DNA of 64,000 nucleotides from Candidatus Bathyarchaeota archaeon (GTDB lineage: Archaea; Thermoproteota; Bathyarchaeia; Bathyarchaeales; Bathycorpusculaceae). Under the pieces are notes generated by a model that saw only the letters and a program-made list of their open reading frames with translations, searched no databases and was not told where the DNA came from. Shown piece after piece: positions 12,793 to 63,988 of this stretch; position 1 is the first letter of the stretch; the number at the start of each line of letters is the position of its first letter. The stretch spans positions 7,135-71,134 of the forward strand of contig JAOZHY010000029.1 of assembly GCA_026014595.1 (NCBI GenBank), written 5' to 3'. Both the position numbers and the translations under genes were made by a program.

Positions 12793-12882
12793 TATTTGGA
12801 GCCTAATAGTGGTTCTATGCAGAAACCTATAGAGGGATAGGTCCGTATTCGCGTTTTCAGACGCCAAAACCATGCAGAAAAC
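12793..12882 (+). repeat. dispersed ~90-bp intergenic repeat, copy A
   Basis: TATTTGGAGCCTAATAGTGGTT...GCAGAAACCTATAGAGGGATAGG...GCCAAAACCATGCAGAAAAC; aligns with 33251, 44607 (rc) and 63899. Confidence 0.92.
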
Positions 12883-12985
12883 AGCAGAGAGGAGGGGCTA
12901 TCCACCGAGAAGTAAATCACAAGCGCCAGCAGTCCTAACAATAGTCACTTGAAACAAACAGAACCAAATTACCAAAACACAAACC

Positions 12986-13456
12986 TTAACCCGGCGTTGT
13001 CGGCGTCGTTGTTCCAGTTGAAGCAGGCTGAACGGCGGGTTGCCCAGGAGTTGCAGGCGGCGGCACTGAAGATTGAGGTGGAGGCTGTCCCGTCACGGAC
13101 TGCTCTTGAACCTCCGGCTCTTCTTGTTGAGGTTGCGTCTGGGGGGTGCTGGGTAAAATCTGGATTTTCTCAGCCATCGGATGCAGCAAGTCAGGCGGCG
13201 GATAAGGTGTGTTCAGTATTGAGGCGAGGATGTAGATTGAGTTAAAAACATGCTGGTAGACTGTGAAAAGAACTTGGGGAATGTTCGTTTTCGGGTTCGG
13301 TTCCAACCGTTTCTTAATGTCCGCTGGGTCACCCTCTAACGTCACCACGCCCAACGTCGAATACTTCACGACATTCGGCTTGGTCGTTATAGAAAGATTA
13401 AAGCTAAGCACAACTTTATCTGTGCCCTTTTTCTGCTCGTCAAGCTTGGCGTTCAC
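12986..13456 (-). CDS. hypothetical protein, possible SecB-like fold with P/Q/T-rich tail; true start probably further upstream
   Basis: Alternating beta-strand pattern, then helix and YPPPDLL; frame stays open ~45 codons upstream of GTG 13456 with no ATG/GTG/TTG. Confidence 0.7.
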   Translation of the reverse strand: MNAKLDEQKKGTDKVVLSFNLSITTKPNVVKYSTLGVVTLEGDPADIKKRLEPNPKTNIPQVLFTVYQHVFNSIYILASILNTPYPPPDLLHPMAEKIQILPSTPQTQPQQEEPEVQEQSVTGQPPPQSSVPPPATPGQPAVQPASTGTTTPTTPG

Positions 13457-13650
13457 TTCGAAAAAAAGCTCTTCACCTGGCGCGTGCTGCCCTGTTCTTT
13501 CAGCTTGGAGGCTGTCAATACGAACCGTGACTGTGACGCCTGAAACAGAATATTTCGGGCAGATGATTGATTCCCCTAATCTATTTTGGCTATTTCATAT
13601 TTAACTTTTGTAGATGCTGAATTCATCGCCTCTGTATAATAGAAACTTGG

Positions 13651-14220
13651 CTAGCTGTTGCCGAAATCGGTGTAAACAGCGGGAACTGAAAGCAGCGTCT
13701 CAAACTTGAACGCTCCCGCACCTGCCACGTCGCCCTTCGTATGCAACACTACCTTCTTGGGGATGTCATCCTCGATGTAAACAATAAACTCAACGTTTTT
13801 CCCCAAACCCATACGCTCAAGCTGCTGGGCGCTATCTTTAAACTTCTCAAGCTCTTGAATCTTGCTTCCGATTTTCTCAATCGCCTCAAACAGTATTTCA
13901 GCCTGTCCCTGATCCGTGGAAGAAAGCAAAATGTTGCCTGATTCAACCCAAATCGAAGGCTCGCCTTTCTTCCCCTTGCTCTTTTTCCCAACGGTTTTAT
14001 TCTCAGGAGCATTTTTCTTGGGCGGCCCCCGCACATTTTTCTGCATAGCAGCCGACTTCTGGTACCAATCCTCGTTTTTATGGGCTTCTTCGCAGCTTCG
14101 TAAGAGCGAGCCCAACCATTGGCTGTAATCTTCAAACAAGGCTCGATGCTGCTCCAGTTGGTCAGCTATGTACTCAGCCATTTCCTTTAATGTGGTGAAA
14201 GTTCGAATCTCAGTTCCCAA
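13651..14220 (-). CDS. hypothetical protein (helix-hairpin-helix/coiled coil)
   Basis: 189-aa ORF with GAGGTGA SD-like sequence before TTG start. Confidence 0.75.
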   Translation of the reverse strand: MGTEIRTFTTLKEMAEYIADQLEQHRALFEDYSQWLGSLLRSCEEAHKNEDWYQKSAAMQKNVRGPPKKNAPENKTVGKKSKGKKGEPSIWVESGNILLSSTDQGQAEILFEAIEKIGSKIQELEKFKDSAQQLERMGLGKNVEFIVYIEDDIPKKVVLHTKGDVAGAGAFKFETLLSVPAVYTDFGNS

Positions 14221-14418
14221 GCTATCACCTCATCCTGTATTAATTGGAAGTAATCGAATGCGCTGTTCCAATTTCAACATCATAGGAAAGATAAAATCAG
14301 TTTTTGAAATAATAGGATTTGTGTATTAACTCTGCTACATACTATTCAGTTATGCCTAAGCAGTCACATTGCAAATAATTATAAGGGTAACCTGACAATT
14401 TAGCGGTAGTCTGCAGCT

Positions 14419-14865
14419 TTGAAGAAGCGGAACAGACAACTTTCCCTTATTCAAACTGCGACAAACGACAAAGCAAGAATGACCAGCCTCAAAACGAAGG
14501 TTACAAATTTGAATAGTACAAGCGAATTTGACACGCTGCTATTACAGGCAATCGACGAAACAATACGATATTGCTTAGGCGACATAAACGCGCAGTTAAT
14601 CTACAATTACCTAGAAAGAAAAGGCATTCTCAAACAAGAAATCCCGAAAAAGTTAGACGACTTCGCGATGGAGTTTGAAAATGTGGTGGGTTTTGGAAGA
14701 GGACAAGTTTTGGGAGCAGCCCAGATTATCGAAGAGGCTATCCTTAAAGCGTTTTGCAATAAACTGAAAATTAACTATGTTGAGACCGGCTCACGATATT
14801 TTCCTGAGCAAATCAAAATGATAAAAGAAACCTACCGTAAAGGTTCCTTAAAAAAGGTTAAATGA
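14419..14865 (+). CDS. NitrOD5/DUF3227-like small helical protein
   Basis: LLQAIDETI..LG....IYNYLE..GI...EIP.KLDDF...ENVVG...IIEEAILK pattern; start uncertain. Confidence 0.6.
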   Translation: MKKRNRQLSLIQTATNDKARMTSLKTKVTNLNSTSEFDTLLLQAIDETIRYCLGDINAQLIYNYLERKGILKQEIPKKLDDFAMEFENVVGFGRGQVLGAAQIIEEAILKAFCNKLKINYVETGSRYFPEQIKMIKETYRKGSLKKVK

Positions 14866-14920
14866 TCTGTTGCAGCCACGTCTTTGCTCGCTCATAGAAA
14901 TTCGACCAATAAAGGCGTTC

Positions 14921-15442: not shown

Positions 15443-15744
15443 TGTTGGTCAATCTTGTTTAGTATGGCTGGAAGAGAAAAATGCTTGTATGTTTCAGGAT
15501 TTACGCACATGGAAATTTTAGATTCTGTTTTCGTTTGGCGCGTGTGCGTTTGTGGTTAAGCGTTTGCGGTTAAGGTATATAATATAACAAGTCGTAATAC
15601 ACAATATTTATATCAGTTTTAAACGAAACAATAAACGGACATACGAGGTGATGCACTCTGAGTTATGGACATCAAGGTCTAAGAGAAAAAACTGAAGTCA
15701 CCAAAATTCAAGAGGTTTCTTCCCTTAGACGAGAAAAATTCAAA

Positions 15745-16680: not shown

Positions 16681-16703
16681 CCATTAACTGCAAGGGAAGC
16701 GGC

Positions 16704-18422: not shown

Positions 18423-18494
18423 GCCGCTTAACGACCATTTTTCTTTCGTGTAAAACATCTTTATGACGGGAGCCTTCGAGAAGTTAACATGGAT

Positions 18495-29633: not shown

Positions 29634-29738
29634 AAATAAGGGATGTGCCGTCACCTCATACAGGCACCAAGCAACGCAAATCTACCCCCCAATTAAGCTC
29701 TATTTATAAAGGGAGATAATCCAAAAATCGCACAACAG
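29634..29738 (+). repeat. degenerate copy of the dispersed repeat core plus 39-bp second module
   Basis: AGGGAT.TGCCGT...CAGGCACCAAGCAACGCAAA resembles the core 3' half; 29700-29738 matches 39797-39835 at 29/39 ungapped. Confidence 0.55.
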
Positions 29739-29764
29739 TGCACAAGAGGAAAAAAGAAAAAAGG

Positions 29765-32331: not shown

Positions 32332-33189
32332 CTATTTTGCATATGCCTCGACGAGGTCGCGTGCTGTGATGATGCCTACCAGCTTATTTCTTACGGCTAT
32401 GGGCAGTCTTCTAATTTTCTTCAACGCCATTGTGGCAGCAGCTCTGTGAACGCTTATTCCAGCCGGAGCAGTGATAAGCGGCGACGAAGCTTCTTTACCC
32501 ACTTCTACGATTAACTGCTTGCCCTTAGCCAGAAAAGCGGTGAGCAAGTCTCGCTCCGTAAAAATCCCAAAAGGCTTTTCTTTGCGGGTGACTATGACGC
32601 TTCCGATGCGTCTCTCGCCCATAATCTTGGCAATTTCGGCTACGGATGTTTTCTCGTCGGCAGTTACAACTTCCTTAGTCATAAAATCATCGACTTTAAC
32701 CTCGGTTTCAGGAACTTCGGGCAAGCTCCTAATAAGGTCAGAAGCGGTTATGACTCCCACAAGCTTTCCGCTGTCAAAAACTGCAAGTCTGCCCTTCTTC
32801 TGAATCATCATCTGAGCGGCTTCCTTTATCTTGGCAGTTGGGCTTATCGTAATAAGCGGATACGACATTACCGCCTCAACTTTTTCCTCCATAGGGTCTT
32901 TCCCCAGAGCCAAAACTTTGCTGAGCAAGTCCCTCTCGGTGACTATACCCACAGGCGTCGCATACTTCGTAACGATCAGGCTTCCGATGTGCTTCTCGCC
33001 CATGACTCCCGCTGCCTCAGCCATCGACGCTTCAGGAGCGATGGTAGCAACGTCTTGGCTCATGATGTGCTTGACTTCTTTGTAACGTGAAAGGTCGCGG
33101 AGGTACTGTTTATACGCGCTGTCGAGGACGCTTGGAAACTCTTTTTTCAAGTCTTTAGGTGTCCTCATAAAATCCAATCCTCTCAGCAT
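32332..33189 (-). CDS. CBS-domain protein (four CBS repeats)
   Basis: Repeated GIVTERDLL, GVITASDL, GIFTERDLL, GIITARDL. Confidence 0.93.
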   Translation of the reverse strand: MLRGLDFMRTPKDLKKEFPSVLDSAYKQYLRDLSRYKEVKHIMSQDVATIAPEASMAEAAGVMGEKHIGSLIVTKYATPVGIVTERDLLSKVLALGKDPMEEKVEAVMSYPLITISPTAKIKEAAQMMIQKKGRLAVFDSGKLVGVITASDLIRSLPEVPETEVKVDDFMTKEVVTADEKTSVAEIAKIMGERRIGSVIVTRKEKPFGIFTERDLLTAFLAKGKQLIVEVGKEASSPLITAPAGISVHRAAATMALKKIRRLPIAVRNKLVGIITARDLVEAYAK

Positions 33190-33250
33190 AAATATTAGTC
33201 GCGATGCCTAATTAAGGCTTATTTTTCCCTCAGTTAACTTGTGTGCAATG

Positions 33251-33340
33251 TATTTGCTGCCTATTAGTGGTTGGTTGCAGAAACTATAGAGGGGTAGGGT
33301 CGCTATTGGCGCCGAAAACAGCCAAAACCATGCAGAAAAC
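33251..33340 (+). repeat. dispersed ~90-bp intergenic repeat, copy B
   Basis: 3' 43 nt identical to copy C (rc). Confidence 0.93.
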
Positions 33341-33460
33341 TGGAAGGGAAACTATCTGCAGGTCACAAAATAGTTTTGTTAAAACTTTCACGTATCGTAT
33401 ATCGTAGAAAGGTTTAAATAAACTCTTACGGTGACGTTGGTTGTTTTTCGAGAGGGGAAT

Positions 33461-33718
33461 GTGTTGCAAAGATTGGGCAGGGTGCAGAGTTACACGCCGT
33501 CCCAGAACATCATTGTCAAAGTCGCCGATAATTCCCCTAAGATAGGCACCTCGGTGGTTGACGAAAACCTGAAAGTTGTTGGAAAAGTCTTCGATTTGAT
33601 AGGTCCAGTGTCTTCGCCGTACGTGGTGATAAAACCCGCAGTCAAGGAACCTGAAAAACTGGCAGGCAAACGGTTGTATCTGCTCCTCTCGAAAAAGCAA
33701 CGGAGCATAAGAGAATGA
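33461..33718 (+). CDS. gar1: H/ACA RNP component Gar1
   Basis: RLGRV...[28 protein letters not shown]; conserved position upstream of tfb; start approximate. Confidence 0.88.
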
Positions 33719-34689
33719 GTGGAGATAGCGAGCTGCGTGAAGACCCAACCTCTTCATCGGCAGCACAACGCGCTGAATCCTTTCGAGTTCAATCATGCCC
33801 TGAATGCGGCAGCACCAGGCTGATGCGCGACTACGAATGCGCCGAAATAGTCTGCATGGACTGCGGCTTCGTGGTCGCCGCTAAAATAGCTGATAGAGGA
33901 CCTGAATGGAGAGCCTTCGACGACGAGCAAAGATCAAAACGCACCCGAGTCGGCGCGCCTTTAACATACACCATCCATGACAAAGGCTTGTCCACAACTA
34001 TTGACTGGCATGACCGAGACATCTACGGAAAGAGCCTCTCTCCGGGGCAGAAGGCGCAGGTGTATCGCCTCAGGAAATGGCAGCGGCGCATAAGGGTTTC
34101 AGACGCCACGGAACGCAACTTGGCTTTTGCTTTGTCAGAAATCACAAAAATCTCGAATAACCTGAATCTTCCCAAGAACATTCTGGAAACTGCGTCGGTG
34201 ATTTATAGGAAAGCCGTGAAGGAACGCTTGATACGTGGACGCTCGATTCAGGGAGTAACCTCAGCAGCGATATACTTGGCATGCAGACAATGCGCACTTC
34301 CACGCACGTTAGACGAAATATCTCAAGCTTCAACAGTGAACAAGAAAGAAATAGGTCGCAGTTACCGTTTCCTCATCAAAGAACTAAACTATTCCATTCC
34401 CCCGCTAAGACCCAGCCAGTACATAACCAAATTCTCCAATCAACTGACAATGCAGGGTAAAGTCGAAGAAATCGCACACAAGATTCTGGCAGCGGCGAAA
34501 GAGCTCAAACTTACGTCTGGCCGCGGTCCCACAGGCATTGCTGCGGCTGCAAGCTACGTGGCTTCGGTTTTGACTGGTGAAAGAAAAACACAGCGGGAAA
34601 TCGCGGAGATTGCGCAGGTTACTGAGGTTACTATCCGTAATCGGTACAAAGAACTTGTTGAAAGGCTAATGTTCCAAATAAGCATTTAA
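33715..34689 (+). CDS. tfb: transcription initiation factor IIB
   Basis: Zn ribbon CPECG..CMDCG, GPEWRAF, two cyclin repeats, [12 protein letters not shown]. Confidence 0.98.
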
Positions 34690-34879
34690 TCACGCCATCC
34701 TCTCCCCCTTTCTTTTTACGTCTTAAAGTCCTGCAGTTTACTAGTTTGCCCCTTTTTTTAACTGAAAGCCATAGACACGAAAAGGATGATTCAGGCGAGC
34801 AATGCAAAATGTTATAGCTTGATCGCGAGAAAATAATTACAGAAGCAGATGACTCAACCGTGAAGGGAGAATAAAATAG

Positions 34880-35308
34880 TTGGTTAAATGCCCGAAATGC
34901 GGAACAGAAGCAGCCACTCCGATTAAATGCTGGACAGTGTCCCCTGAGAAACGGACTGCAAGCGGGGTCATGCCTGAGTTTCACGTTGGATTTTTCATGT
35001 GCCCCAAATGCGGGTCAAAATTCAGAAAAAAGGTGGCCCCCGCAGCGAAAACTGTGCAGGCCGCAAATATCAAGGAATTGGCTGAAAGGGTCAAGGGCAT
35101 ACATGAAGGGTTAACGCAGACCTTGAGGACTCTGCGGGAAAGAATAGGCATCTTGGAAACTGAACGTTCAAGCGTGCTGATGGAGATTGAGAGTCTCAAA
35201 AAAGCCGCGGAGTCTCGTGCCAAAGCCCTTGAAAACGAAGTTAACACACTACGGCAGGAGATTCAGTCTCTCAAGGAACTCTTGGGGTCTACTGAAAAAG
35301 CAATGTAG
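34880..35308 (+). CDS. Cren7-like Zn-ribbon domain fused to coiled coil
   Basis: CPKCG..P.K.W..SP...VGFF.CPKCG..FR matches the Cren7 pattern; heptad-rich C-terminus. Confidence 0.65.
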   Translation: MVKCPKCGTEAATPIKCWTVSPEKRTASGVMPEFHVGFFMCPKCGSKFRKKVAPAAKTVQAANIKELAERVKGIHEGLTQTLRTLRERIGILETERSSVLMEIESLKKAAESRAKALENEVNTLRQEIQSLKELLGSTEKAM

Positions 35309-35377
35309 CCCGCGGCAAGCGTGTTTTTGGCTTAAGACGCAGTTATTCTTTTAAGCGTGTCTATCGCTATTTAGGAC

Positions 35378-35992
35378 ATGCCCTACAAGTTCACTTTCGA
35401 CCTTTCGAAAGTTCCACGTTTCTTCTTCACTGAGATAGCCGTGGTTGGTTACCACAGGGGCATGCATAAGACGCTTCTTAACACGCTGCAGGAGATTATA
35501 AGAAAATTCAAAATCCAAGAAGCCACGGGGCTTAATCTTTCTGACGCCGTCGTTCTTCTTCAAGACCTCATAGAAATGCAGGCGGTAAACCTTATGGAAA
35601 GAGGTCGATTCCTGCAGACCAAGAAGAGAGCGCTTTTCCTGCCGCATTGCGCCCGAAAATTTATGGACAGCCGCTGCAAGGCAAACTTTGATCCTTCGAT
35701 TCCCTCGTACACCTGTGCTCACTGCTCCGCTGATTGCTTAGTTAACAAGGCGGACACTTTAGCCAAGAAGAAAGGCTATGACGTGTACATACTGCCCGGC
35801 GGCTCATGCGTCCCCAAGATTCTGAAGACAAATCAGTACGAGGGCATTGTCGGCGTGGCTTGCGGGGAAGAAGTGAAGATATCTAAGGAACTCTTAACCA
35901 GCATGGACGTTGCTGCTCAGGCTATACCGTTGATAAAGAACGGGTGTGCCAACACAATCTTCAACATGGATACGCTAGTTAACACTCTTTGA
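35378..35992 (+). CDS. DUF116-family protein
   Basis: FLPHC.R..C.A...C.HC..C, YILPGGS, GIVGVAC, IPL...GC. Confidence 0.85.
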   Translation: MPYKFTFDLSKVPRFFFTEIAVVGYHRGMHKTLLNTLQEIIRKFKIQEATGLNLSDAVVLLQDLIEMQAVNLMERGRFLQTKKRALFLPHCARKFMDSRCKANFDPSIPSYTCAHCSADCLVNKADTLAKKKGYDVYILPGGSCVPKILKTNQYEGIVGVACGEEVKISKELLTSMDVAAQAIPLIKNGCANTIFNMDTLVNTL

Positions 35993-35997
35993 AAAGC

Positions 35998-36159
35998 TTA
36001 CTTTACGAGTTCCCGTTTCTTCCATCTGAGGTTCTTGCTCTTGCATTTTCGGCATTTGGTGGCGGTTGCGGCGTTTCTGGCTCCGCAGTCCCTGCAGATT
36101 TTCATGTAGAGCCTGTGCTTCTGCGCTATGGCTTTCTTAACTGGGTCTAATATTGGCAT
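35998..36159 (-). CDS. rpl40e: 50S ribosomal protein L40e (below ORF-track cutoff)
   Basis: Manual translation MPILDPVKKAIAQKHRLYMKICRDCGARNAATATKCRKCKSKNLRWKKRELVK. Confidence 0.95.
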   Translation of the reverse strand: MPILDPVKKAIAQKHRLYMKICRDCGARNAATATKCRKCKSKNLRWKKRELVK

Positions 36160-36275
36160 GTGGTGCTCCTCTTTAAGTGCTTAGAGCAAGATGGTTCCCT
36201 GTCAAATATACCTTTTGCCAAAAAACTTTCAGACGCCAATCTCGAAGCCTTCCTGTCTCAATAAGCGCTTGCGCC

Positions 36276-36734
36276 TCATTTGAGAACTTCAATCGTGACG
36301 TAAGACCTTGTGTCTTCAATGCCGTCTATGGCGTATAGTTTTTTGAGGAATGCGTCCAAGTTTTCTCTTTCAACCATTATGAGGGCGTCAACTTCGCCGG
36401 CGATTCTGAAGGCTCTTATCACCGGCAGTTCCCTTATTTTCTCGTACACCTGTAGGCGTTTGACTGGGGAGACTTTGAGGAGGATGAACGCTGGCGTTGA
36501 TGATATGCCGAGTGCGCTTAATCCTTTTTCCGTGACGTCTATGAAGCCTCGGCCAGTGCGGATGTAGTTTCTGTCCTTAAGCTTCTTGAGGTGCACGTTC
36601 AATGCTTGTCTGCTTATGCCTAACTGTTCGCTTAATTCGTCTTGTTTAACGTCTAAGGTGTAGGTGGTTGCGGATTTGCTTTTCTCGTAGAGTTTCCTTA
36701 AGAGCTGGACAGAGCGTTTTGTGAGGGGTTCCAT
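36276..36734 (-). CDS. Lrp/AsnC-like transcriptional regulator
   Basis: HTH QDELSEQLGISRQALNVHL plus RAM-like IAGEVDAL..GIEDTRSYV. Confidence 0.85.
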   Translation of the reverse strand: MEPLTKRSVQLLRKLYEKSKSATTYTLDVKQDELSEQLGISRQALNVHLKKLKDRNYIRTGRGFIDVTEKGLSALGISSTPAFILLKVSPVKRLQVYEKIRELPVIRAFRIAGEVDALIMVERENLDAFLKKLYAIDGIEDTRSYVTIEVLK

Positions 36735-36961
36735 GTTTTCACTTTCACTTTTATGCGGTTTTGTTAAGGTAATCCTTTACAATTATCGCGTTATTTAAGA
36801 CTTTAGCTAGAAGAAAACTTGTTTATTGACCTATCGCCTAAAATTCTTTATTTTCCGCATGTTTAAGTCAAATTTGCTCGGTCAAACCACAATCTATTTA
36901 TTTGCCGACAAAAAAACTAATGAACCATCACCAAGAAAGGGACACTAGGAGTGAAGCGGCA

Positions 36962-37243
36962 ATGTCTGAAAACAACAACGCAGTGTTAATCGGAACTAAA
37001 CCAGTTATGAACTACGTGCTTGCTTGCATAACCTTCTTTCATGGCGGGGCAAAAGAAGTACGCATCAAGGCACGTGGGCGCTCGATAAGCCGGGCAATTG
37101 ACGTCGCCGAAGTCGTGAGGCGCCGATTCCTACCTGACGTGAAAGTCAAGAGCATTGGCATCGGAACAGACCAAATCACATCCACGGAAGAGGGCAACCA
37201 GCTGACTAACGTCAGCACCATAGAAATAACGCTGGAACGCTAA
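36962..37243 (+). CDS. albA: chromatin protein Alba
   Basis: [36 protein letters not shown]. Confidence 0.96.
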
Positions 37244-37314
37244 GCGGGCACTTCCAACCTTAAGCACCGCGCAGTTGCTCCCCTTGTGTTTGCGGGAGGG
37301 CGTCTTCCCTAAAA

Positions 37315-37824
37315 ATGAAGACTGAACTATGTAGCTTCTGTCTAAAGAGTGGCATACTGTGCCAAAAATGCTCAGCAAAAGTCAAAGCTGGCGAGATAAG
37401 CGAGTTAGACCTGAGAATCGCCCGCCTGCTGCTGTCTCTTGAAGAGAAGTATCCTTCCCTCCAAAACGTCTGCTTCTACAAGGCGGTCAGCGTCGAGAAG
37501 ACTTTAGCCATAATCGTGGGACACGGAGATGTGCCGCGTCTTTTAGGTTACGGCGGCAAAATCATCAAAGCGATAGGTGACGAAACAAACAAGTCTGTCC
37601 GCATCTTGGAATACGGGGTTGACGATCGCAAGTTCCTCGAAGACTTGTTCATCCCTCTCAGTATATTAACCATAAACACTATATGGTTGCCTGACGGCTC
37701 CACTGAAACCCGGGTAATTTTGAAGAAAAAGCGCGGTACGCCGTTGCCCTTCGACCTGAAGGCTTTAAAGGAAATCGCCCGTAAAGTACGTAAAATGTCG
37801 TTACGCGTCGAGTTTGCTGAGTGA
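37315..37824 (+). CDS. NusA-like KH-domain protein with N-terminal Cys motif
   Basis: CSFC.KSGILCQKC; KH motif LLGYGGKIIK. Confidence 0.75.
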   Translation: MKTELCSFCLKSGILCQKCSAKVKAGEISELDLRIARLLLSLEEKYPSLQNVCFYKAVSVEKTLAIIVGHGDVPRLLGYGGKIIKAIGDETNKSVRILEYGVDDRKFLEDLFIPLSILTINTIWLPDGSTETRVILKKKRGTPLPFDLKALKEIARKVRKMSLRVEFAE

Positions 37825-39161: not shown

Positions 39162-39256
39162 ATTGTTTCTTCTTTAACTGTTTTATAGAAGTTATTTTCA
39201 GAATGAATATAACTGGGTGCACGCGTAAGTGTTTGAGAAAGGAGTTGTAAAAGGGA

Positions 39257-39691
39257 GTGGCGAGAAAAAAATACGCTCTACTATTGTTGGCGGTTATGCT
39301 GGCGGTTCTAGTCATTAACTTTTCGGCAACAAACGCAAGCAGCACGTTGACCTGCTCAAGCGACAATGACGGAGTGGTGAACAAAGCTCCGGGCGACGCG
39401 TTCACGGTTAAAATCACGTTTAAGAACACGGGAAAAACTGAAGGCAACTGGAGCATAAATATCGCTTTCGAAGGCGACTCATGGTCTCAAACTGGAACGG
39501 CAATAAACCTTACACTGAAACCTGGAAACTCCAAGACCTTGACGTGGAATGGCAACGTTCCAGCCAACGCAACCGTCAATTCGATAGCGCGGCTTGTAGT
39601 GTACTATAACGACTCGTTCAAAGCGCTTGACTGGTGGATTCTGGTGGTTCCTGGCGCAGAACTGAGCATAACATCAAGCACCGTAGAATAA
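39257..39691 (+). CDS. secreted Ig-like domain protein
   Basis: Signal peptide; PGD..TVKITFKNTG..L.PG.S CARDB/Ig-like pattern. Confidence 0.7.
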   Translation: MARKKYALLLLAVMLAVLVINFSATNASSTLTCSSDNDGVVNKAPGDAFTVKITFKNTGKTEGNWSINIAFEGDSWSQTGTAINLTLKPGNSKTLTWNGNVPANATVNSIARLVVYYNDSFKALDWWILVVPGAELSITSSTVE

Positions 39692-39796
39692 TCCAACAAC
39701 CATCAAACGGCAAAGATTAACCCATTTTCCACACGAGAGTTTAGTCGCCCCATAAAACAAAGACGCGCCAGAAGCAAGTCTTCAGGTTAAGCCAAA

Positions 39797-39835
39797 CTAT
39801 TTATAGAGGGGTATCAGTCAAAAATTACACGCCAG
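39797..39835 (+). repeat. solo 39-bp repeat module
   Basis: CTATTTATAGAGGGGTATCAGTCAAAAATTACACGCCAG; shares TATAGAGGGGTA with the core repeat. Confidence 0.55.
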
Positions 39836-39880
39836 AAAGTTTGGACCCAAAAAAAGAACTGAAAAAGGTGCACGATATGG

Positions 39881-40549
39881 TTATTCTCTGCTTGAGAGCA
39901 CAAGAATGTAGTCTGCAGTGTCCGCGCACATGTCCGCAGCATGTTCAATGAACTCGATTAAGTCATCGAATATTACCATGGTTCCGCAGTTGACTTGTTC
40001 TCCATACTTTACGAACAACGTCTTCGCTTTAAGGTACTCCGCATCAATATCGTGCTCAATTTCTCCCACCTTCCTTGCCTGCTCAATCGCTTCAGAAGGG
40101 TTGAAAGAAATCTTTTCGATGCTGCTGCGCAAAGTTTGAGCAGTATCCACCAGCTTTGAAGTCATGTAAACGGTTTTAGTGCACAGTTCCTCAGGGATTT
40201 TCGCTTCTCCCAACATCTCTAGGCAGCGTGCAGCGTCTTTAGTGTGGTCCGCAAGCGTGTCCAGTCTTTTCACGAGATGCAGTAAGTCTTCCCGGTAATC
40301 CGCCACTAACGCTGCACCTTTGGAGAGTTCCATGAAAACGTCCGTACGCAAACGGTCCACTTCTTCTTCCGCCTTGTACAGGTTCTCGATGTACTTCTTG
40401 GCTTCCTTAATGTTACCTTCTGAAAAGCTTTTCATGGCTTTGTTGAGCCACGTCACTGTGTCAAAGGCTTTCGTTATCTGTTCATGGGCTAGTTCCAGCC
40501 CCTTTGTTCTACGACGTTTCTCAAACCAACCGTAGCTTCTCTTTTCCAT
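39881..40549 (-). CDS. DUF47/PhoU-like phosphate transport regulator
   Basis: EEEVD..R...REDL..L...LD.LAD and E.DID...E.AAD..AD.AD duplicated acidic helices. Confidence 0.88.
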   Translation of the reverse strand: MEKRSYGWFEKRRRTKGLELAHEQITKAFDTVTWLNKAMKSFSEGNIKEAKKYIENLYKAEEEVDRLRTDVFMELSKGAALVADYREDLLHLVKRLDTLADHTKDAARCLEMLGEAKIPEELCTKTVYMTSKLVDTAQTLRSSIEKISFNPSEAIEQARKVGEIEHDIDAEYLKAKTLFVKYGEQVNCGTMVIFDDLIEFIEHAADMCADTADYILVLSSRE

Positions 40550-40940
40550 CCAAGCGCATCTCCGTCTTTACTACTTATTTAGAATGGTTCACATATAACC
40601 CTTCTCTTACAGCACGAACAGGTGCTGAATGAACTTTGCCTCCGTGCTGCTGATTGTTACGCCAGGCATGCGTCAATCGCCAAAAACCAATCCACAAGGT
40701 CCATCCCATCCACGTGAACCTGTTTCTTTCCTTTCCTCTTATCGCCCATAGCCCTTGCCGCCACATAAATCTCCTCGACAAACTATTTCACACGTGAATG
40801 AAGTACCACGGCTCCGTGTTTGTGTTAGCCGCTTTTTTCCTCGCTTTTAGTCGCTGCATTTCAATCTCCACTACCACTAATCTGTTCCACTTTATTTAGA
40901 ATCTCCACATATTATATAGAAGCCAATTTAGCCTATATAG

Positions 40941-41858
40941 TCAGTTGCCCAGAACCACCCTTGCCAACGCAACCTTGTCCTCCAAGCTCCTCATTAAAGT
41001 GTTAGCAACTTTAACCTCAATCCCCAATCTCTCAATCCTGCTCCTCTCTGCAGCATCCGCAGCATCCAAAACGAAAGTGTCCAAGAAGTCAGCGTACAGC
41101 TTCGCCACCGCGAACGCGGAAACCTCAAGCCCCAAACCCCGCATAATCTTATCTGCTGGACCCTTAATCGGTGCGCCAGCAACAATCGGAGTTATCGCTA
41201 TTTTTCTCGCCTCTGTGTGCCGCAATGCGTCTCTTACGCCGTCGACAGTCAAAATCGTGCCGATGCTGACCACAGGGTTGCTGGGGCAAACAATCACCAA
41301 CTCAGCATCCATAATCGCTTCCAGCACACCAGCAGCAGGCTTCGCAGTGTCCGCTCCGAGAAATTCGACACCTAACACATCGTCTCTTGAACCGTTTTTG
41401 ACATAATATTCTTCAAAATGAACCGACCCTTCCGCCGTGATGATTCGTGTCTCAAACTTGTCATCTGTCATGGGCAGAATCCTCACGCCAAGCCCGAAAG
41501 CCTCAGTTATTTTCGCGGTAATCTCGGAAAGCTTCCAGCCCCTTTTCAGCAGACTTGTCCGAAACAGGTGCGTCGCCAAATCCCTGTCGCCCAGAGCAAA
41601 CCAAGATTCGCCACCCATTTTCCTAAGCGCTTCGAGACAATGGAAAGTGTCGCCTTTGAATCCCCAACCCTTCTCCTCATCAACCACCCCTGCCAACGTG
41701 TACGTGACGATGTCCAAGTCTGGGCTTATGTGCAAGCCGAAAAGTTCTATGTCGTCGCCTGTGTTCACGATTACGGATAAGCTCTTTTCGTCAACAAGTT
41801 TCACGAGTCCTGTTAGAAATCTGGCTGCTCCAACTCCACCTGCCAACGCCGTAATCAC
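40941..41858 (-). CDS. cofD: 2-phospho-L-lactate transferase
   Basis: LAGGVGAA, VNTGDD, SPDLD, LGDRDLATH, PSNPVVSI, GPADK. Confidence 0.95.
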   Translation of the reverse strand: MITALAGGVGAARFLTGLVKLVDEKSLSVIVNTGDDIELFGLHISPDLDIVTYTLAGVVDEEKGWGFKGDTFHCLEALRKMGGESWFALGDRDLATHLFRTSLLKRGWKLSEITAKITEAFGLGVRILPMTDDKFETRIITAEGSVHFEEYYVKNGSRDDVLGVEFLGADTAKPAAGVLEAIMDAELVIVCPSNPVVSIGTILTVDGVRDALRHTEARKIAITPIVAGAPIKGPADKIMRGLGLEVSAFAVAKLYADFLDTFVLDAADAAERSRIERLGIEVKVANTLMRSLEDKVALARVVLGN

Positions 41859-41934
41859 GGTTTTCCACTCTCAAGAGTCCATGTGCTCAAAGCATTTAAG
41901 GAATTTTCGACTCGAAAGCCACGCGATTTCCTTG

Positions 41935-42414
41935 CTACGTTGTGTGGCTTTCTCTTTCCGAAACCCAGTATTCGCTGCTTGCACCTTTCGCGCTAATTAT
42001 GCGTTCTTTCTTGAACACAGGCGCTTCGCTCTTGTACCGCTCCACGGCTTCCTTCAGAACTGGAAAAACATCCGTTCTATGCGAACCCGCAACAGAAACG
42101 TAAACCAAGTCTTCGCCAACTTTAAATTCGCCGAGCAAATGGTGAATCTGAACGTCAACTATGCCAGGTTTCTTGGAGAGATCCGTGCAGATTTTCTCAA
42201 GAACCTCGTTGGCTTTCTCCTCATACGCTTCCAGCGTGAGTTTCTCCACTTTTTCCCCTTGTAGGGTTTCGCCCCGAGCTACACCGATAAAAAGCGCTAT
42301 GGCCCCTGCTTTGTCGAAGTTCTGACTTTTTTTGGTTTTGTTTATCACATCTAAAATGGAAAAGGTTCCTTTTTTATGGACTCCTGCGTGCTGGGTCAAA
42401 TTTTTCACCTTCAT
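41935..42414 (-). CDS. moaE: molybdopterin synthase catalytic subunit
   Basis: GAIALFIG.AR, EAY, H..G...VGE, HR, K..APVFKKE. Confidence 0.92.
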   Translation of the reverse strand: MKVKNLTQHAGVHKKGTFSILDVINKTKKSQNFDKAGAIALFIGVARGETLQGEKVEKLTLEAYEEKANEVLEKICTDLSKKPGIVDVQIHHLLGEFKVGEDLVYVSVAGSHRTDVFPVLKEAVERYKSEAPVFKKERIISAKGASSEYWVSERESHTT

Positions 42415-42512
42415 GCTACTGCCGAAGAACTGGTTTACATGTAAGCAGTCACGGCTCTAAAGACGTTTCGCATAAAACGATGAGAAATAATGAAACGCTG
42501 GCGCCAGCGTGT

Positions 42513-43127
42513 TTAAGCCGCTTTCGCTTCTTGCACAGGCACCTGTGCTGGCTGCGCTATCAGCTTCGATTTTCTTATGCCCACATGTCTAAGCGGCGCA
42601 ACTTTCTTGGCTTGGTTGTAAACGTCAGAAGCTATTTTTCCAAGCACCATTTCTTGCACAAAACTGTCCAAGTTCAGCGTAGAAGCCTTTTCGGTGGTGA
42701 TTTTCTCCATGATGTCGCGGATAAGCTTCTCCTGAGATGTCTTTATCCGTGAAAGCGTGAGGGCCGAAACCGCAATTCTCAATTTGTAGCCGTCTTTGGT
42801 GGTCAAGTTGAAAAGCCCATCAACCTTCGTGGTTCGTCTTCGCACAAGACTGCGAAGGTAGTCACGGCTGTACTCGTGTCCTTTGAACATCGTGTGAGCG
42901 GTTTTGCCTTCGATTTCGCTGATTTGGAAGAACATCTTCAAGTACTGGTGGGAAAAGTCCCCAGTTATGTCATAAAGCGTTGCTTCGACAACTCTTCCAA
43001 TGAGCTGTTCAGGTTCTTCCGCTGGCACTGCGCCTAACTCAACGTTTCCGAAGAATGGTGGCGCTATCACCATGTACCAGGCTTTTCCTCGCCATTTATC
43101 GCGTAAATGCTTTGTTTTTGAAGACAC
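42513..43127 (-). CDS. rps3ae: 30S ribosomal protein S3ae
   Basis: DKWRGKAWY, GRVVEATL.D.TGD, RDYLRSLVRR, PLR.V.IRKSK. Confidence 0.96.
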   Translation of the reverse strand: MSSKTKHLRDKWRGKAWYMVIAPPFFGNVELGAVPAEEPEQLIGRVVEATLYDITGDFSHQYLKMFFQISEIEGKTAHTMFKGHEYSRDYLRSLVRRRTTKVDGLFNLTTKDGYKLRIAVSALTLSRIKTSQEKLIRDIMEKITTEKASTLNLDSFVQEMVLGKIASDVYNQAKKVAPLRHVGIRKSKLIAQPAQVPVQEAKAA

Positions 43128-43183
43128 GTTGATCCTCCGAATGCGCCTTCATCATTCTCGGGGATATAAATAAATGTTTACCG

Positions 43184-44476
43184 CTAAGGGCTTATCTTCT
43201 CGATGCTGCCCATGTACTTTCGCAGCGCTTCAGGAACCGTGATTGTGCCGTCTTCTTGCTGATAGTTCTCCAATAATGCTACGATGGTTCTGCCAGTTGC
43301 TATGGCCGTTGAGTTCAAGGTGTGCACGAAGCCCTTTGTGGGTGCACCTTCTTTTTCTCTGTACCTTATGTTTAATCGCCTCGCTTGGTAATCTGTGCAG
43401 TTGCTGCAGGAGATGATTTCTCGGTATGAGTTTTGCGCGGGCATCCAGGCTTCGATGTCGTATTTTTTAGCTGCCACTGTGCCGATGTCGCCTGTGCACA
43501 CGTTGACAACGCGGTAAGGCAAGCCAAGTTTCTGGACAAGATCTTCCGCGTTTTGAAGAAGCTCTTCATGAAGTTGCCAAGACTGCTCGGGCGTGCAGAA
43601 GATGAACTGTTCTATCTTATTAAACTGGTGAGTTCGGAATATACCGCGTGTGTCTTTGCCGTGTGCACCTGCTTCTTTCCTGAAGCACGCGCTTACGCCT
43701 GCAAGTTTAAGAGGAAGGTCCTCTTCTTTGAAGACTTCGTTCATGTACATGGCTGCCATGGGATGTTCCGATGTGGCGATAAGGTACAGGTCTTCGTTCT
43801 CAATTTTGTAAAGCACATCCCCGAAGTCGCTGAGCGCTGTGACTCCTTCGTAGGGTTCTCGTTTCATCAGGTATGGCGGTTCCACAGGTTGATAGCCTTT
43901 CTTCACGAGCTCTTCCATGGCGAAGCTCATCAGCGCCATATCCAAGAGAACGCCTTGTCCTTTTAGGAAGAAGAATCTTGCGCCAGCGACTTTGCTTGCC
44001 CTTTCAACGTCAACTATGCCCAAGTTTACGGCTAGATCAATGTGGTTTTTTGCTGTGAAGCCGAATTTTGCCGGTTTGCCCCATGTTTTGATTTGAACGT
44101 TGTCGTTTTCATCTTTCCCGAACGGCACGGTTTCATGAAGCAGGTTCGGAAGCCTCATCAGGTAATAACGTGTTTTCTCTTCCTGCTCGATGACCTGTTT
44201 TTCGATTGTTGAGATTTCAGCGTCGATTGCCTTTGCTTTTTCAACTTCTTCAACTGCGTTTTTCCCTGCCTTCTTTAACTTGGCGATTTCAATGGTTACG
44301 AGTTTTCTTTCGTGACGAAGGTCATTGAGCTTTGTCAAGTTCTGCCGCCATTCCCTGTCAACCCTGATGAGTTCATCAAGCATCATGTCGTTTTCAGGGT
44401 TTCCTCTCTTGGCCAAGTTTTCCTTCACGAACTGAGGGTTTTCCCGGATAAGTTTGATGTCCAACATTTTATTCAC
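43184..44476 (-). CDS. serS: seryl-tRNA synthetase (standard type)
   Basis: MLDIKLIRE, LIATSEHP, FRKEAG, SCSNCTDYQARR, HTLNST. Confidence 0.97.
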   Translation of the reverse strand: MNKMLDIKLIRENPQFVKENLAKRGNPENDMMLDELIRVDREWRQNLTKLNDLRHERKLVTIEIAKLKKAGKNAVEEVEKAKAIDAEISTIEKQVIEQEEKTRYYLMRLPNLLHETVPFGKDENDNVQIKTWGKPAKFGFTAKNHIDLAVNLGIVDVERASKVAGARFFFLKGQGVLLDMALMSFAMEELVKKGYQPVEPPYLMKREPYEGVTALSDFGDVLYKIENEDLYLIATSEHPMAAMYMNEVFKEEDLPLKLAGVSACFRKEAGAHGKDTRGIFRTHQFNKIEQFIFCTPEQSWQLHEELLQNAEDLVQKLGLPYRVVNVCTGDIGTVAAKKYDIEAWMPAQNSYREIISCSNCTDYQARRLNIRYREKEGAPTKGFVHTLNSTAIATGRTIVALLENYQQEDGTITVPEALRKYMGSIEKISP

Positions 44477-44606
44477 GGAAGCGCTCTGTAATTTTAGATT
44501 GCCTGATTATTTAAACTTGCGATAACGGTTCAGTCTATTTTCTGCCCCTTTCATATACTATAAGTAGCGTTGAAGATCTGTTGCTCTACGGCTAATCTCT
44601 TTTCTC

Positions 44607-44694
44607 GTTTTCTGCATGGTTTTGGCTGTTTTCGGCGCCAATAGCGACCCCCCTCTATAGGTTTCAGCAACCAACCACTAATAGGCTCCAAATA
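44607..44694 (-). repeat. dispersed ~90-bp intergenic repeat, copy C (reverse orientation)
   Basis: Reverse complement reads TATTTGGAGCCTATTAGTGGTTGGTTGCTGAAACCTATAGAGGGGGGTCGCTATTGGCGCCGAAAACAGCCAAAACCATGCAGAAAAC. Confidence 0.93.
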
Positions 44695-44877
44695 GGTTGG
44701 TCAAAAAATGCATGCGTTAAGCGGGTCGGGTTTTCTGCTTATTGTTGTTTCCTTTTATTTGTTTAGGGTTTTAGGTGTCTTGACTGGAACAATGCAGCCT
44801 ATGCTCCATGTGTTGAGGGTATGGCAAGATTAAAAGGGAACCCAGTACAATAGCGTATTAGCTCGGTGAAACGGTTT

Positions 44878-45252
44878 ATGAGCAAACGCGAAAGCGAAGT
44901 CACAGTTAGGTATGAGCCTTTCAAAGAAATCGTCATAATGGAACGTACCCTCTTCTCCACGCCTGAAGAAATCGCTCGCTTCACTTCCGTCATCGCAGGT
45001 GGCAAACTTGCTGGACTCTACTGGGTTGACGGCGTCGTCTTCCTCTACTTCCCGCTTCCCGCGTCCACAGCGGCAGTTGCCAAGATGCTTATCGAATCAG
45101 GCAAAGTTTACTGGACGTTTGTTGGCTATGCACTGATGCCGAAGTACGCGCCAACCATAGAAACCAAGGAGAAAATGATTGTCCCAGTCATAGACATATC
45201 CGCTGATACGGTCCTCGCAAAAGTCGCAAAATGGCTCAAAGAACAAACGTAA
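44878..45252 (+). CDS. hypothetical protein
   Basis: ATG 44878 after GGTGA SD; globular composition. Confidence 0.8.
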   Translation: MSKRESEVTVRYEPFKEIVIMERTLFSTPEEIARFTSVIAGGKLAGLYWVDGVVFLYFPLPASTAAVAKMLIESGKVYWTFVGYALMPKYAPTIETKEKMIVPVIDISADTVLAKVAKWLKEQT

Positions 45253-58768: not shown

Positions 58769-58827
58769 AATAGCACACGCAAAATTGAGAAACACTCGTG
58801 AATTGTGGGGTTTTCTTTAACCCCTCT

Positions 58828-58989: not shown

Positions 58990-59069
58990 GGAAACTACCT
59001 GCCCTACAAAGAAAAAGGTATTTTGCTTTTAAACGTTTCCAATAATCTTCAGTCAGCGAAGGATGAAAT

Positions 59070-59933: not shown

Positions 59934-59979
59934 GAATGCTGATAAGGAAAAGCGCATACTTAGACAGAAGGCGAAAAAT

Positions 59980-61833: not shown

Positions 61834-61954
61834 CCTTTCGGCGCCGTCTCGATTTAGGATGAGGCGTGTTTTAAGTTTTTGCGTTGGGCACGCTTAGGCT
61901 GCAGGTTTATTAAAAACAGCGTTCACCATTCATAAGTGAGCGTGGACTGAGAAA

Positions 61955-62224
61955 GTGACTGGCGCGGAGGCTCTTTACGCTGTCGGCTTCGCGTTGATTT
62001 TCATCGGAGTACTCGTAATCATCGTCGCGATTATTGCCGCGTCGGTTTTGGGCGCTAAGAAAGGGAAAAGCAAGGTGAAGGCTGGTGGCGCAGTGATAAT
62101 CGGTCCTGTTCCCATAATTTTCGGCACCGACAAAAAGTCGCTTAAGACTGTTCTGCTGCTTTCCATGGCGCTTACCGTGCTGCTTATAGTTGCCATGGTT
62201 GTTTACTACTTTCTGTTCAGGTGA
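61955..62224 (+). CDS. DUF131-family membrane protein
   Basis: GGAVIIGPVPIIFGTD. Confidence 0.85.
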   Translation: MTGAEALYAVGFALIFIGVLVIIVAIIAASVLGAKKGKSKVKAGGAVIIGPVPIIFGTDKKSLKTVLLLSMALTVLLIVAMVVYYFLFR

Positions 62225-62230
62225 CGCGCG

Positions 62231-62548
62231 ATGGCGTATGCATTTGAGAAATCGGATGAAACTGCCGCGGAAAAAGGAGTCACGATTTATAGCAGGCTTT
62301 TCCTGTTCCTGATTCTGGGCTTTGCAATGATTTTCATCGGCGTACTGCTCATAGTTGTTGCTTCGGTGCTTTCCGGCGGCGCTGAGGCGGCGAGCGTTGG
62401 CGCGGTTATTTTTATCGGTCCGTTTCCGATAGTAATTGGTGCTGGTCCCGACATGACCTTTTTGATTGTTGTCGGCGTGGTCCTCGCGGTTCTGAGCGTC
62501 GTGATTCTTCTGATTTTGTGCAGAAAGGTTGGGCGGTACGTCTTTTAG
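62231..62548 (+). CDS. DUF131-family membrane protein (second copy)
   Basis: GAVIFIGPFPIVIGAG. Confidence 0.82.
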   Translation: MAYAFEKSDETAAEKGVTIYSRLFLFLILGFAMIFIGVLLIVVASVLSGGAEAASVGAVIFIGPFPIVIGAGPDMTFLIVVGVVLAVLSVVILLILCRKVGRYVF

Positions 62549-62676
62549 GTTTTCGGAGCTGTTGCTTGCTCTTCTTCTTTGCCGTAGAAAGAGTACAGGA
62601 ATATAAGAATCAGAGCTACGAAGGTTGATGCCATGAGGACGTATTCCAGTGTTATGAAGTATGCAGTTAAGTCCAT
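62545..62676 (-). CDS. 43-aa single-TM small protein (not in ORF track)
   Basis: MDLTAYFITLEYVLMASTFVALILIFLYSFYGKEEEQATAPKT; GAGGAG 7 nt upstream of ATG. Confidence 0.65.
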   Translation of the reverse strand: MDLTAYFITLEYVLMASTFVALILIFLYSFYGKEEEQATAPKT

Positions 62677-62718
62677 TGCGGTTCTCCTCTGTGTTTGCTT
62701 ATTGTATGGTTTTAATAT

Positions 62719-63129
62719 TTAAGCAGTAGGTTTTTTCCACTCATCCATCAACGTGTTGTAGAGTTCGTCGTTTTCTTCGAGGGTTTCGTACCAGCCGAGG
62801 TTGCGGGCGATTTTCTGCGCGATGAGGTGGTAGCAGAGGTGGATTTTCTTATCTAGGACGCGGAAGTAGAAGTCGTCACAGGAGCAGAATTCGGCTTCGG
62901 GCATGATGAGGTAGTCTCGTTCTCTGCCGATGACTATCCAGACTGTTCTGCCGCTGGGCTTGAAAACATACTTCTTAACCCTGTTTTCTTTTAGTGCAGC
63001 AAGGGCTTTTGTGAATCGTTGACCGAAAAGCTCGTAGAGTTCCGTCAGGTTCTTGCCGGAAAGCTTGCCCTCTGCTTTTGCTTCGCGGCAGATTGCGTTT
63101 AGCGTGTCGATTTCGTTGATGTCAGCCAT
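62719..63129 (-). CDS. SWIM zinc-finger protein
   Basis: FCSCDDF...CYHLIA (CxC-xn-CxH). Confidence 0.88.
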   Translation of the reverse strand: MADINEIDTLNAICREAKAEGKLSGKNLTELYELFGQRFTKALAALKENRVKKYVFKPSGRTVWIVIGRERDYLIMPEAEFCSCDDFYFRVLDKKIHLCYHLIAQKIARNLGWYETLEENDELYNTLMDEWKKPTA

Positions 63130-63164
63130 TTTGAGGGCACGAGCTTTCCAAAAAAACGCGTGGT

Positions 63165-63764
63165 TTAGCCTATGTCGATTCGTTCGCCTTTAGGCTGTTT
63201 GGGGGCTTCGGCTTTGGGGAAGACGACTTCCAAGACGCCGTTCTTGTATGTTGATTTTGCTTCTTTCACCTTGACTTTGACAGGCAACGCGACATCCTTA
63301 TAGTACTTGTACTGGGGTGTGTCCACAGAAATCGTGAGCGAGTCTTCTGTGCCGTGAAGTTTGATGTCTGTTTTCTCCACGCCCGGCAGCTCCGCGACCA
63401 CGCGTACTTCGCTGTCTGTTTCAACAATGTCCACGAGCGGTTCACGCTCCTCTTTAACCTCAGGACCTTTAAGCGATTTTTTGATGTTGCCAAACTCTTG
63501 GATTTCAGGTTTGCCGTCAGGTCCAATTCTCATGCTATAGCCGTACACGAAAGGCCCAAATTCCTTGACGGTGCTACCGTCTGGAAGCTTGCGTTCTTTC
63601 ACGTAGTCTTTGGGGACATTTTCTGAGAACTTCTTGAACTCTTCCTCCATCATTCTCTCCATTTCGCTGAACATGCGGTCGATGTCGCCGAAAAACGGGT
63701 CGCTACTGAAAGGTCTGCGTCTTCGCTTGTACCATTCTGGATAATCTTCATCGTCTGATGACAT
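63165..63764 (-). CDS. hsp20: small heat shock protein Hsp20
   Basis: GPFVYGYS..IGPDGKP, AELPGV, YKNGVLEV, C-terminal IxI. Confidence 0.94.
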   Translation of the reverse strand: MSSDDEDYPEWYKRRRRPFSSDPFFGDIDRMFSEMERMMEEEFKKFSENVPKDYVKERKLPDGSTVKEFGPFVYGYSMRIGPDGKPEIQEFGNIKKSLKGPEVKEEREPLVDIVETDSEVRVVAELPGVEKTDIKLHGTEDSLTISVDTPQYKYYKDVALPVKVKVKEAKSTYKNGVLEVVFPKAEAPKQPKGERIDIG

Positions 63765-63898
63765 AATTCTTCACCTTGTAATGTTGACTTGACGGCTTTC
63801 TATAAATTTTGTGCTCACCTCTGACTCCTACAAACTATGAACTTAAACGCTTAATCGATAGAAGCACCTTTTTGAGAACTACTATACATATCGCAGTC

Positions 63899-63988
63899 TA
63901 TTTGCCGCCTATTAGTGGTTGGTTGCAGAAAACTATAGAGGGGTAGGGTCGTATTCGCTTTTTCAGGCACCAAAAGCATGCAGAAAAC
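63899..63988 (+). repeat. dispersed ~90-bp intergenic repeat, copy D
   Basis: TATTTGCCGCCTATTAGTGGTTGGTTGCAGAAAACTATAGAGGGGTAGGGTCG...CCAAAAGCATGCAGAAAAC. Confidence 0.92.

Follow-up and report, generated by a model that had tools for sequence, protein, structure and literature searches.

Four copies in the window and the family behind them

We analysed a 64,000-nt stretch (the window) of a metagenome-assembled genome (MAG) from a member of the Bathyarchaeia, which comprises 2.06 Mb in 51 contigs, is 89% complete and is called G000 below. An earlier note, made from the letters alone, had described in it a dispersed intergenic repeat, and nhmmer recovered all four copies that it listed. Copy A (window 12785–12883, plus strand; contig position C32:19919–20017) is full length, with a 5′ core and a 3′ hairpin half whose loop is of the T type (CGCGTTTTCAGACGCC). 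It has a TraX-family gene (12017–12718, minus) on one side and small open reading frames (ORFs) on the other. On its 3′ side it continues into a purine-rich extension (12884–12929, plus; AGCAGAGAGGAGGGGCTATCC...), a semi-conserved third module that is present after many copies. Copy B (33247–33342, plus; C32:40381–40476), full length with an A-type loop (GGCGCCGAAAACAGCC), lies between a CBS-domain gene (32332–33189, minus) and an operon (33431–34689, plus) made up of a small ORF and a gene of the TFIIB family (TFB; 33715–34689, plus). The presence of the latter marks the organism as an archaeon.

Copy C (44605–44701, minus; C32:51739–51835) is also full length, and its neighbours are the seryl-tRNA synthetase (SerRS) gene (43184–44476, minus) and the gene of a 128-aa hypothetical protein (44866–45252, plus). 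Copy D (63893–63990, plus; C32:71027–71124), full length with a T-type loop, lies 128 nt from the start of an hsp20 gene (63165–63764, minus). A third hsp20 paralog of this genome adjoins a copy at C35:149658. As had been remarked, the genes beside the four copies (TraX, CBS, SerRS, TFB, Hsp20) are unrelated in function.

In a four-way alignment the window copies match over about 100 nt, with a mean column identity of 75% and long invariant blocks. A repeat finder recognised one direct family among them, together with inverted matches to the copy on the minus strand. Copies B and C have about 43–44 identical nucleotides in common at the 3′ end, where 43 had been counted before, and the internal direct repeat TGCAGAAA is present as described.

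A hidden Markov model built from these four sequences gave 80 nhmmer matches in G000 and 86 after one iteration, so the prediction that the genome would hold many copies was correct. Among the approximately 86 matches, 61 are full length, about 14 consist of the 5′ half only and 3 of the 3′ half only. When the search pattern was reversed as a control, it had 0 matches in four complete chromosomes and four single matches among 401 genomes. The size of the family in G000 is far above chance expectation. Copies are dispersed, about 24 kb apart, and encode nothing recognisable. Against gene calls made by a simple longest-ORF approach (2153 ORFs, 89% coding), every copy in the genome was intergenic or touched only short doubtful ORFs, which extends the intergenic placement claimed for the window to the whole assembly. 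Two contigs, C8 (69–150) and C10 (68–148), open with an identical sequence that includes a copy. This suggests that the assembly tends to break at copies and that copy numbers from MAGs are lower bounds.

The earlier note had also proposed a fixed orientation, with the 5′ (TATTTG) end pointing toward the start of a gene. This is true of the four window copies, and the probability of such a four-out-of-four pattern by chance is about 0.08. Across the 61 full-length copies of the genome, however, the 5′ end looks toward a gene start in 32 cases and toward a gene end in 28, the 3′ end gives identical counts, and the four possible flank configurations are about equally common (16, 16, 15 and 12). 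The window pattern was thus a small-sample accident, and with it a gene-linked function loses its main argument. For 109 loci elsewhere in the Bathyarchaeia, the 3′-side gene was co-oriented in 59 cases and not in 35 (59/94), compared with 48 and 52 (48/100) on the 5′ side (P=0.017). This bias is weak, and its direction is opposite to that of the claim.

Recurring neighbour gene families were found neither in G000 nor at the 109 other loci, except for abundant ABC-transporter and surface-protein families; elsewhere the copies adjoin genes for proteins such as ABC transporters, surface proteins and kinases. In G000, six paralogous secreted or surface proteins flank copies (C17:45773–47752, C17:369047–370285, C32:84024–85481, C42:44203–45699, C3:15106–16077 and C17:62923–63858), and a homologue in another genome matched NosD. 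The genes may belong to a variable surface repertoire at sites prone to recombination, or they may simply be part of a large family. Transfer RNA (tRNA) genes lie within 300 nt of a copy in 6 of 31 cases (C10:216, C12:67303, C17:209907, C30:121615, C36:5486 and C42:519), compared with 7.6% of ORFs (P ~0.03).

Beside copy B, a 95-aa ORF (33431–33718, plus) lies directly upstream of the TFB gene and overlaps its start. DNA from window position 33403 onward is about 82% conserved in congeners that lack the element, so this ORF probably represents a genuine small gene that is transcribed together with tfb.

Modular anatomy and tests for promoter or RNA function

The conserved body of the element spans C(A/C)TATTTGG to GTTGAAAAC. 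When copies from many genomes are compared, the portion kept across the family is a 5′ core of about 62 nt. This core comprises an 18-bp imperfect palindrome, CTATTTGG-NN-CCTAWTAG, in which the central GGNNCC is frequently palindromic too, a hypervariable spacer of about 7 nt, the box WTGCAGAAAC-CTATAGRGGG (the GCAGAAAC/CTATAGAGGG box) and a short arm, TCTATC or TAGG, that complements part of CCTATAGA. In most G000 copies the 3′ half consists of GCTATTGGCG and a 3–4-bp GC stem with its loop, followed by AAACCATGTTGAAAAC. The loop comes in two mirror forms, GAAAAC-type and TTTTC-type, even at one locus across two species, which agrees with a separate earlier remark on a micro-inversion.

Beyond this body, many copies are extended by a purine-rich, semi-conserved sequence (AGCAGAGGAGAGGGG..CGCAGAGC). 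A TATA-like module (CTTTAAATAAGGGGCTATAGAC-AAAAATCGCACAYCAGTTC) follows at a fixed 165–175 nt in 11 copies, which gives a composite of about 215 nt. The TATA-like module is itself about 45 nt long and contains an TTTAAATA-type box, a GGGG-CTATAG-like block and AAAAATCGCACA-CAG. It occurs about 45 times in G000, with about 18 of the occurrences located 60–160 nt downstream of a main element. Two solitary modules lie in the window: one at 29700–29745 (plus; TATTTATAAAGGG..AAAAATCGCACAACAG) and the other at 39797–39842 (plus), directly upstream of which the sister species has about 340 extra nucleotides.

Further parts vary in the same manner. A GTCAAG-N4-CTTGAC palindrome precedes some copies, the 5′ flank AACCAGC is conserved only to 50–70%, and the complete Bathy-6 chromosome has additional inserted and upstream modules. 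GCAGAAAC occurs three times per element (5′ flank, interior and 3′ end), and four to five CTAT(T)WGG half-sites, arranged as palindromes or direct repeats, fall within 75 nt. The imperfect extragenic palindromes (CTATTTGG-NN-CCTAWTAG, CCTATAGA-GGG-TCTAT/TAGG and GGCG-loop-CGCC) are combined differently from copy to copy. With module content so varied, the family is a mosaic of modules rather than a single fixed unit.

The small hairpins described earlier found no support as a conserved RNA structure. RNAalifold on 29 diverse copies returned −0.04 kcal/mol with 0 compensatory pairs, and G000 copies likewise gave no structure. A mutual-information scan of the copies yielded subfamily signals only, and the folds of single copies were inconsistent with one another. 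The 3′ hairpin folds modestly better than shuffled sequences (mean −2.2 vs −1.0 kcal/mol), with several A-C mismatches. In Rfam (15), the window had no match at the gathering score and copy B none up to E=10; with respect to this check the novelty of the family stands. We therefore rejected a structured RNA, given the lack of an Rfam match, a consensus fold and covariation. A terminator was rejected as well, because downstream of the core T-runs are no commoner than A-runs. The same applies to a relation to CRISPR: the sole array detected in G000 (C46:33239–34903, about 23 repeats, CTTTCAATTCCCTTTACT...) is unrelated, and copies of the element are dispersed.

The boxes resemble promoter signals, and we consider it possible, if unlikely, that the element serves as a promoter cassette dispersed through the genome or as a multicopy gene for a small RNA. 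CAGAAAC-CTATAGAG would then be a B recognition element (BRE) with a TATA box, the upstream palindrome would act as an operator, and transcription toward the 3′ side would produce short non-coding RNAs or drive the downstream gene. The best argument for this is that tRNA promoters of G000, GAAAATG-CTTATAGG and GAGAATG-CTTATTAGG, resemble the element boxes. The genome consensus TATA box TTTAAATA is found in the optional 3′ module, several Bathy-6 copies are directly preceded by a T/A-rich stretch and soon followed by an oligo-T run, and the 3′-side bias among other Bathyarchaeia points the same way. However, the 3′ side in G000 faces gene starts and gene ends almost equally, CTATAG is not enriched in ordinary upstream regions, and congeneric species do without the element. 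The balance of T- and A-runs and the results of RNAalifold and Rfam given above also argue against a promoter or small-RNA function.

Distribution, breakpoints and exchange between copies

BLAST against 40 relatives detected the element in the sister species G002 (at least 65 candidate matches), which has about 90% DNA identity to G000, and did not find it in three other congeners that are 65–88% complete. Within the family of G000, the core pattern matched 35 of 103 genomes. No match came from about 64 genomes of other families of the order, and one single match from about 230 other class members. Judged by these matches, the element is restricted to one Bathyarchaeia family, and its occurrence there is patchy. 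In well-sampled genera it is present in 15/40, 5/12 and 4/4 genomes. Genomes that are 100% complete can hold either 0 or 45 copies, and complete chromosomes gave 61, 38, 30 and 6 pattern matches. The dominant variant also differs by genome, being CTATAGAGGG in G000 and CTATAGGGGG, CGATAGGGGG or CCGATAGAGGG elsewhere, which suggests amplification or homogenisation within lineages.

A genome of a different genus, G007, has its sole copy (C42:3631–3727, L002) at the end of a short contig. The nhmmer score, E-value and span of this copy are the same as those of the TFB-adjacent copy in G002 (C1:12871–12967, L003); the contig was probably mis-binned and does not document the element in that genus.

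No description of such intergenic repeats or of miniature inverted-repeat transposable elements (MITEs) was found in the literature on Bathyarchaeia, as the earlier note had supposed. Repeats, transposons and synteny go unmentioned in the paper that reports the complete Bathy-6 genome.

Comparison with G002 revealed rearrangements at the copies themselves. The 11.3-kb segment between copies B and C (33343–44604), which extends from TFB through the Cren7-like and Alba region to SerRS, is bounded by oppositely oriented copies. Window positions 34705–43200 map as one continuous, colinear block to G002:C1:11451–2649 on the opposite strand. In G002, one copy of the element separates the CBS gene from the SerRS gene, while TFB adjoins another copy. 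The opposite-strand mapping and the swap of neighbours across the copies allow us to conclude that the segment as a whole is inverted in G002. At one of its bounding copies, a further rearrangement places the gene of the 128-aa hypothetical protein about 19 kb away in that species.

The same association was observed on a larger scale. In a survey of 346.5 kb of G002 contig C20 against G000, 11–13 of the 20 junctions had a copy in one or both genomes, compared with about 10% expected (P ~1e-7 to 1e-9). Every one of the five junctions whose gap was below 300 nt fell exactly at a copy, and two more 20-kb regions followed the same pattern. Homology to the element-free congeners G004, G001 and G003 ended at the element for all 7 copies compared (B, C, D, C35:146969, C36:96196, C36:98748 and one more); at copy D, for instance, homology with G004 and G001 stops just before the copy. 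It speaks against MAG mis-joins that element-free congeners break likewise and that several junctions agree in two independent assemblies.

In the five clean junctions the crossover point varies, lying at the 5′ end, in the 5′ half or in the 3′ extension. Such variation is more in keeping with general homologous recombination than with a fixed core site, and site-specific crossover was rejected on the same grounds. It is very doubtful, then, that the element is an att-, dif- or attC-like target of a dedicated site-specific recombinase, with the rearrangements driven by that enzyme and not by-products of homology. The very tight coincidence of copies with synteny breaks, even relative to distant congeners, would suit such a target, as would the retention of the GCAGAAAC-CTATAGAGGG box in both kinds of partial copy, the position of the hypervariable spacer between palindromic boxes and the mild enrichment of tRNA genes nearby. 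Yet the arms around the spacer are not mutual inverted repeats, 5′-half-only copies outnumber 3′-half-only ones by 14:3, unlike the outcome of a reciprocal exchange, and no recombinase gene is linked to copies.

Eight G000 copies were compared with their same-locus counterparts in G002. The pairs are 93% identical at 51 family-conserved columns and 59% identical at 49 variable columns; non-orthologous pairs from the two genomes reach 52% at the variable columns, and syntenic flanks have 71–88% identity. Module content, too, can differ at one locus between these species. Since same-locus copies are barely more alike than random ones, we conclude that copies exchange sequence.

The conserved boxes raise the question of selection. 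The element could be an array of binding sites for a host protein (nucleoid, segregation or regulatory) that recognises CTATWWGG half-sites and is kept by selection at each locus, which appears to us quite improbable. The four to five half-sites within 75 nt are what such an array would look like, and at loci common to G000 and G002 the boxes stay 93% identical next to positions near saturation. In a complete 3.04-Mb chromosome with 61 copies, spacing is slightly more even than random (coefficient of variation 0.785 vs 0.975, P ~0.03). On the other hand, the copies there are mixed between strands (23 plus, 38 minus; 36 strand runs vs 29.7 expected), with no strand bias that switches with replication direction as in KOPS or Chi. 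The chromosome-organising site proposed earlier is thus left with a weak hint in the spacing, while the missing strand polarity and the congeners without the element speak against it. The element is absent from 3 of 4 other congeners and from 24 of 40 species of a well-sampled genus, including 100%-complete genomes. Furthermore, neither a recurring neighbour gene nor a candidate protein was found, and variants common to all copies of a genome arise more easily through amplification or conversion.

Nature of the element

Alignment of 61 copies with their flanks revealed no convincing conserved terminal inverted repeats. Between the 5′ flank and the 3′ end there is a weak, indel-containing match of about 13/16, which many copies lack, and a weak complementarity of CAGCAT (5′ flank) to ATGTTG (3′). 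No consistent direct repeat at the alignment boundaries indicated a target-site duplication; the 3′ boundary, being modular, lacks a sharp definition. With no clear terminal repeats or duplications and no transposase, the assembly agrees with the observations of the earlier note.

Searches for TnpB (PF07282) and the Y1 transposase (PF01797) gave 0 matches in G000, while control genomes responded, and PF01797 also had 0 matches in G002. PF01797 is present in G014, G020, G052, G132, G382 and G390, all without the element, and both occur together only in G074. The zero counts in G000 speak equally against a TnpB omega-RNA scaffold. Across the family, the Y1 transposase is found mostly in genomes that lack the element and is not co-distributed with it. 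An all-against-all ORF search of the G000 assembly detected no multicopy transposase-like ORF, and none of the 109 loci from other genomes has an ORF flanked by inverted copies. A transposase partner was therefore rejected: TnpB and Y1 TnpA are missing from G000, no insertion sequence (IS) was found and no neighbour family recurs.

A filled and empty pair of the same site was not found, and the two candidates were complex indels, one involving an hsp20-like gene and the other the 340 nt by the TATA-like module. The former lies at C17:168647–169500 of G000, where a copy and the small hsp20-like gene form a block of about 590 nt; the same site in G002 lacks it.

These results make it extremely improbable that the element is an ordinary MITE or an IS200/IS605-type palindrome-associated transposable element derived from a known IS. 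In favour of such an origin, it is small, multicopy and intergenic with lineage-specific bursts, it has subterminal palindromes at both ends together with the CAGCAT/ATGTTG complementarity, and its semi-conserved 5′ flank AACCAGC resembles a target site. It is opposed by the lack of conserved terminal repeats and target duplications and by the transposase searches described above.

Among 13 pattern matches in IMG/VR, 2 are true copies. One of the two contigs has DNA about 83% identical to G000 in common with it and may be host DNA. The other (L205, IMGVR_UViG_3300021603_001028) is a 10.8-kb viral or proviral contig with tail proteins (phrog_290, E=1e-16) and a true copy at 2282–2366; it is a possible vehicle for the spread of the element between lineages. 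A viral origin was rejected, as only these two matches are true and one of them is perhaps host DNA.

In our opinion the element is a mosaic repeat similar to repetitive extragenic palindromic (REP) sequences, bacterial interspersed mosaic elements (BIMEs) and BOX elements, and a substrate for ectopic recombination in these genomes (probability roughly 0.6). That the family is the main such substrate is the best-supported conclusion. Such recombination is frequent: crossovers between copies invert and translocate chromosome segments, such as the 11.3 kb between B and C, and exchange among copies keeps the boxes uniform while shuffling variable positions. The patchy distribution and the genome-specific variants suggest copy-and-paste amplification within lineages by a trans-acting enzyme that would recognise the palindromic boxes. 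This enzyme may now be lost or unassembled, and the present copies are presumably largely passive, like bacterial REP/BIME or BOX mosaics. Of the four natures that the earlier note had offered, a REP/BOX-like or non-autonomous element fits best, while the small RNA finds no backing in Rfam or covariation.

Several points weigh against this interpretation. Neither an empty counterpart of a filled site nor a target duplication nor an autonomous copy turned up, so mobility itself is presumptive. Recombination and segmental duplication alone could in principle explain the amplification, and the intact boxes at common loci (93%) could reflect purifying selection for a host function. Part of the association with breakpoints is expected without causation, because element sites and breakpoint-tolerant sites are both inter-operonic. 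Finally, MAG mis-joins at repeats may account for some of the breaks.

A more active role for the near-invariant 62-nt core, in which two palindromes surround the hypervariable spacer, seems unlikely to us, namely that it is the recognition site of a putative archaeal recombinase or transposase which both copies the element and catalyses exchange between copies. If this were true, the pervasive reshuffling of these chromosomes and the scrambling of copies at common loci would be enzyme-driven and not a matter of passive homologous recombination.

The mosaic repeat that we favour resembles BOX of Streptococcus pneumoniae and BIME of E. coli. These are also short, non-coding and intergenic, number tens to about 100 copies per 2 Mb, occur in either orientation, contain small palindromes and join modules in varying combinations and numbers. 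In contrast to them, the Bathyarchaeia element has no sequence relation to either and resides in an archaeal host. BIMEs rest on REP palindromes tied to REP-associated tyrosine transposases (RAYTs), and no such transposases were found here. The link with breakpoints and the near-random similarity at the same locus are stronger than is usually reported for BOX and BIME.

With the REP/REPIN-RAYT systems of Proteobacteria, the element has in common imperfect palindromes, extragenic placement, lineage-specific amplification and a patchy distribution. However, the Y1 partner is missing from G000 and does not track the element, and the unit is longer (62–215 nt) and mostly non-palindromic. Archaeal and bacterial MITEs, for example the SM elements of Sulfolobus, are likewise small, non-autonomous, multicopy, intergenic and substrates of recombination, but they differ in the terminal inverted repeats, target-site duplication and related autonomous IS that were not found here. 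The pattern of rearrangement is similar to IS-mediated reshuffling in Bordetella pertussis, Yersinia pestis and the inversions of Thermococcales, where junctions between relatives fall at a dispersed repeat and inverted copies bound inversions. In the present case, by contrast, the repeat is only about 100 nt long, its copies are 80–90% alike and it carries no transposase.

Bathyarchaeia are among the most abundant archaea of anoxic sediments and soils, and to our knowledge the ways in which their genomes change are almost wholly unexplored. Bacteria provide the classic examples of mosaic REP/BOX-like repeats, and we know of hardly any descriptions of them in archaea. The repeat family studied here appears to be the main site of chromosome breakage and rejoining in one Bathyarchaeia family. 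This has consequences for synteny-based annotation, for the assembly of MAGs, whose contigs end at copies, and for the inference of gene transfer. With no partner of the RAYT or IS type, the question arises of what amplifies the copies, and the conserved palindromic boxes provide a concrete bait for the protein involved.

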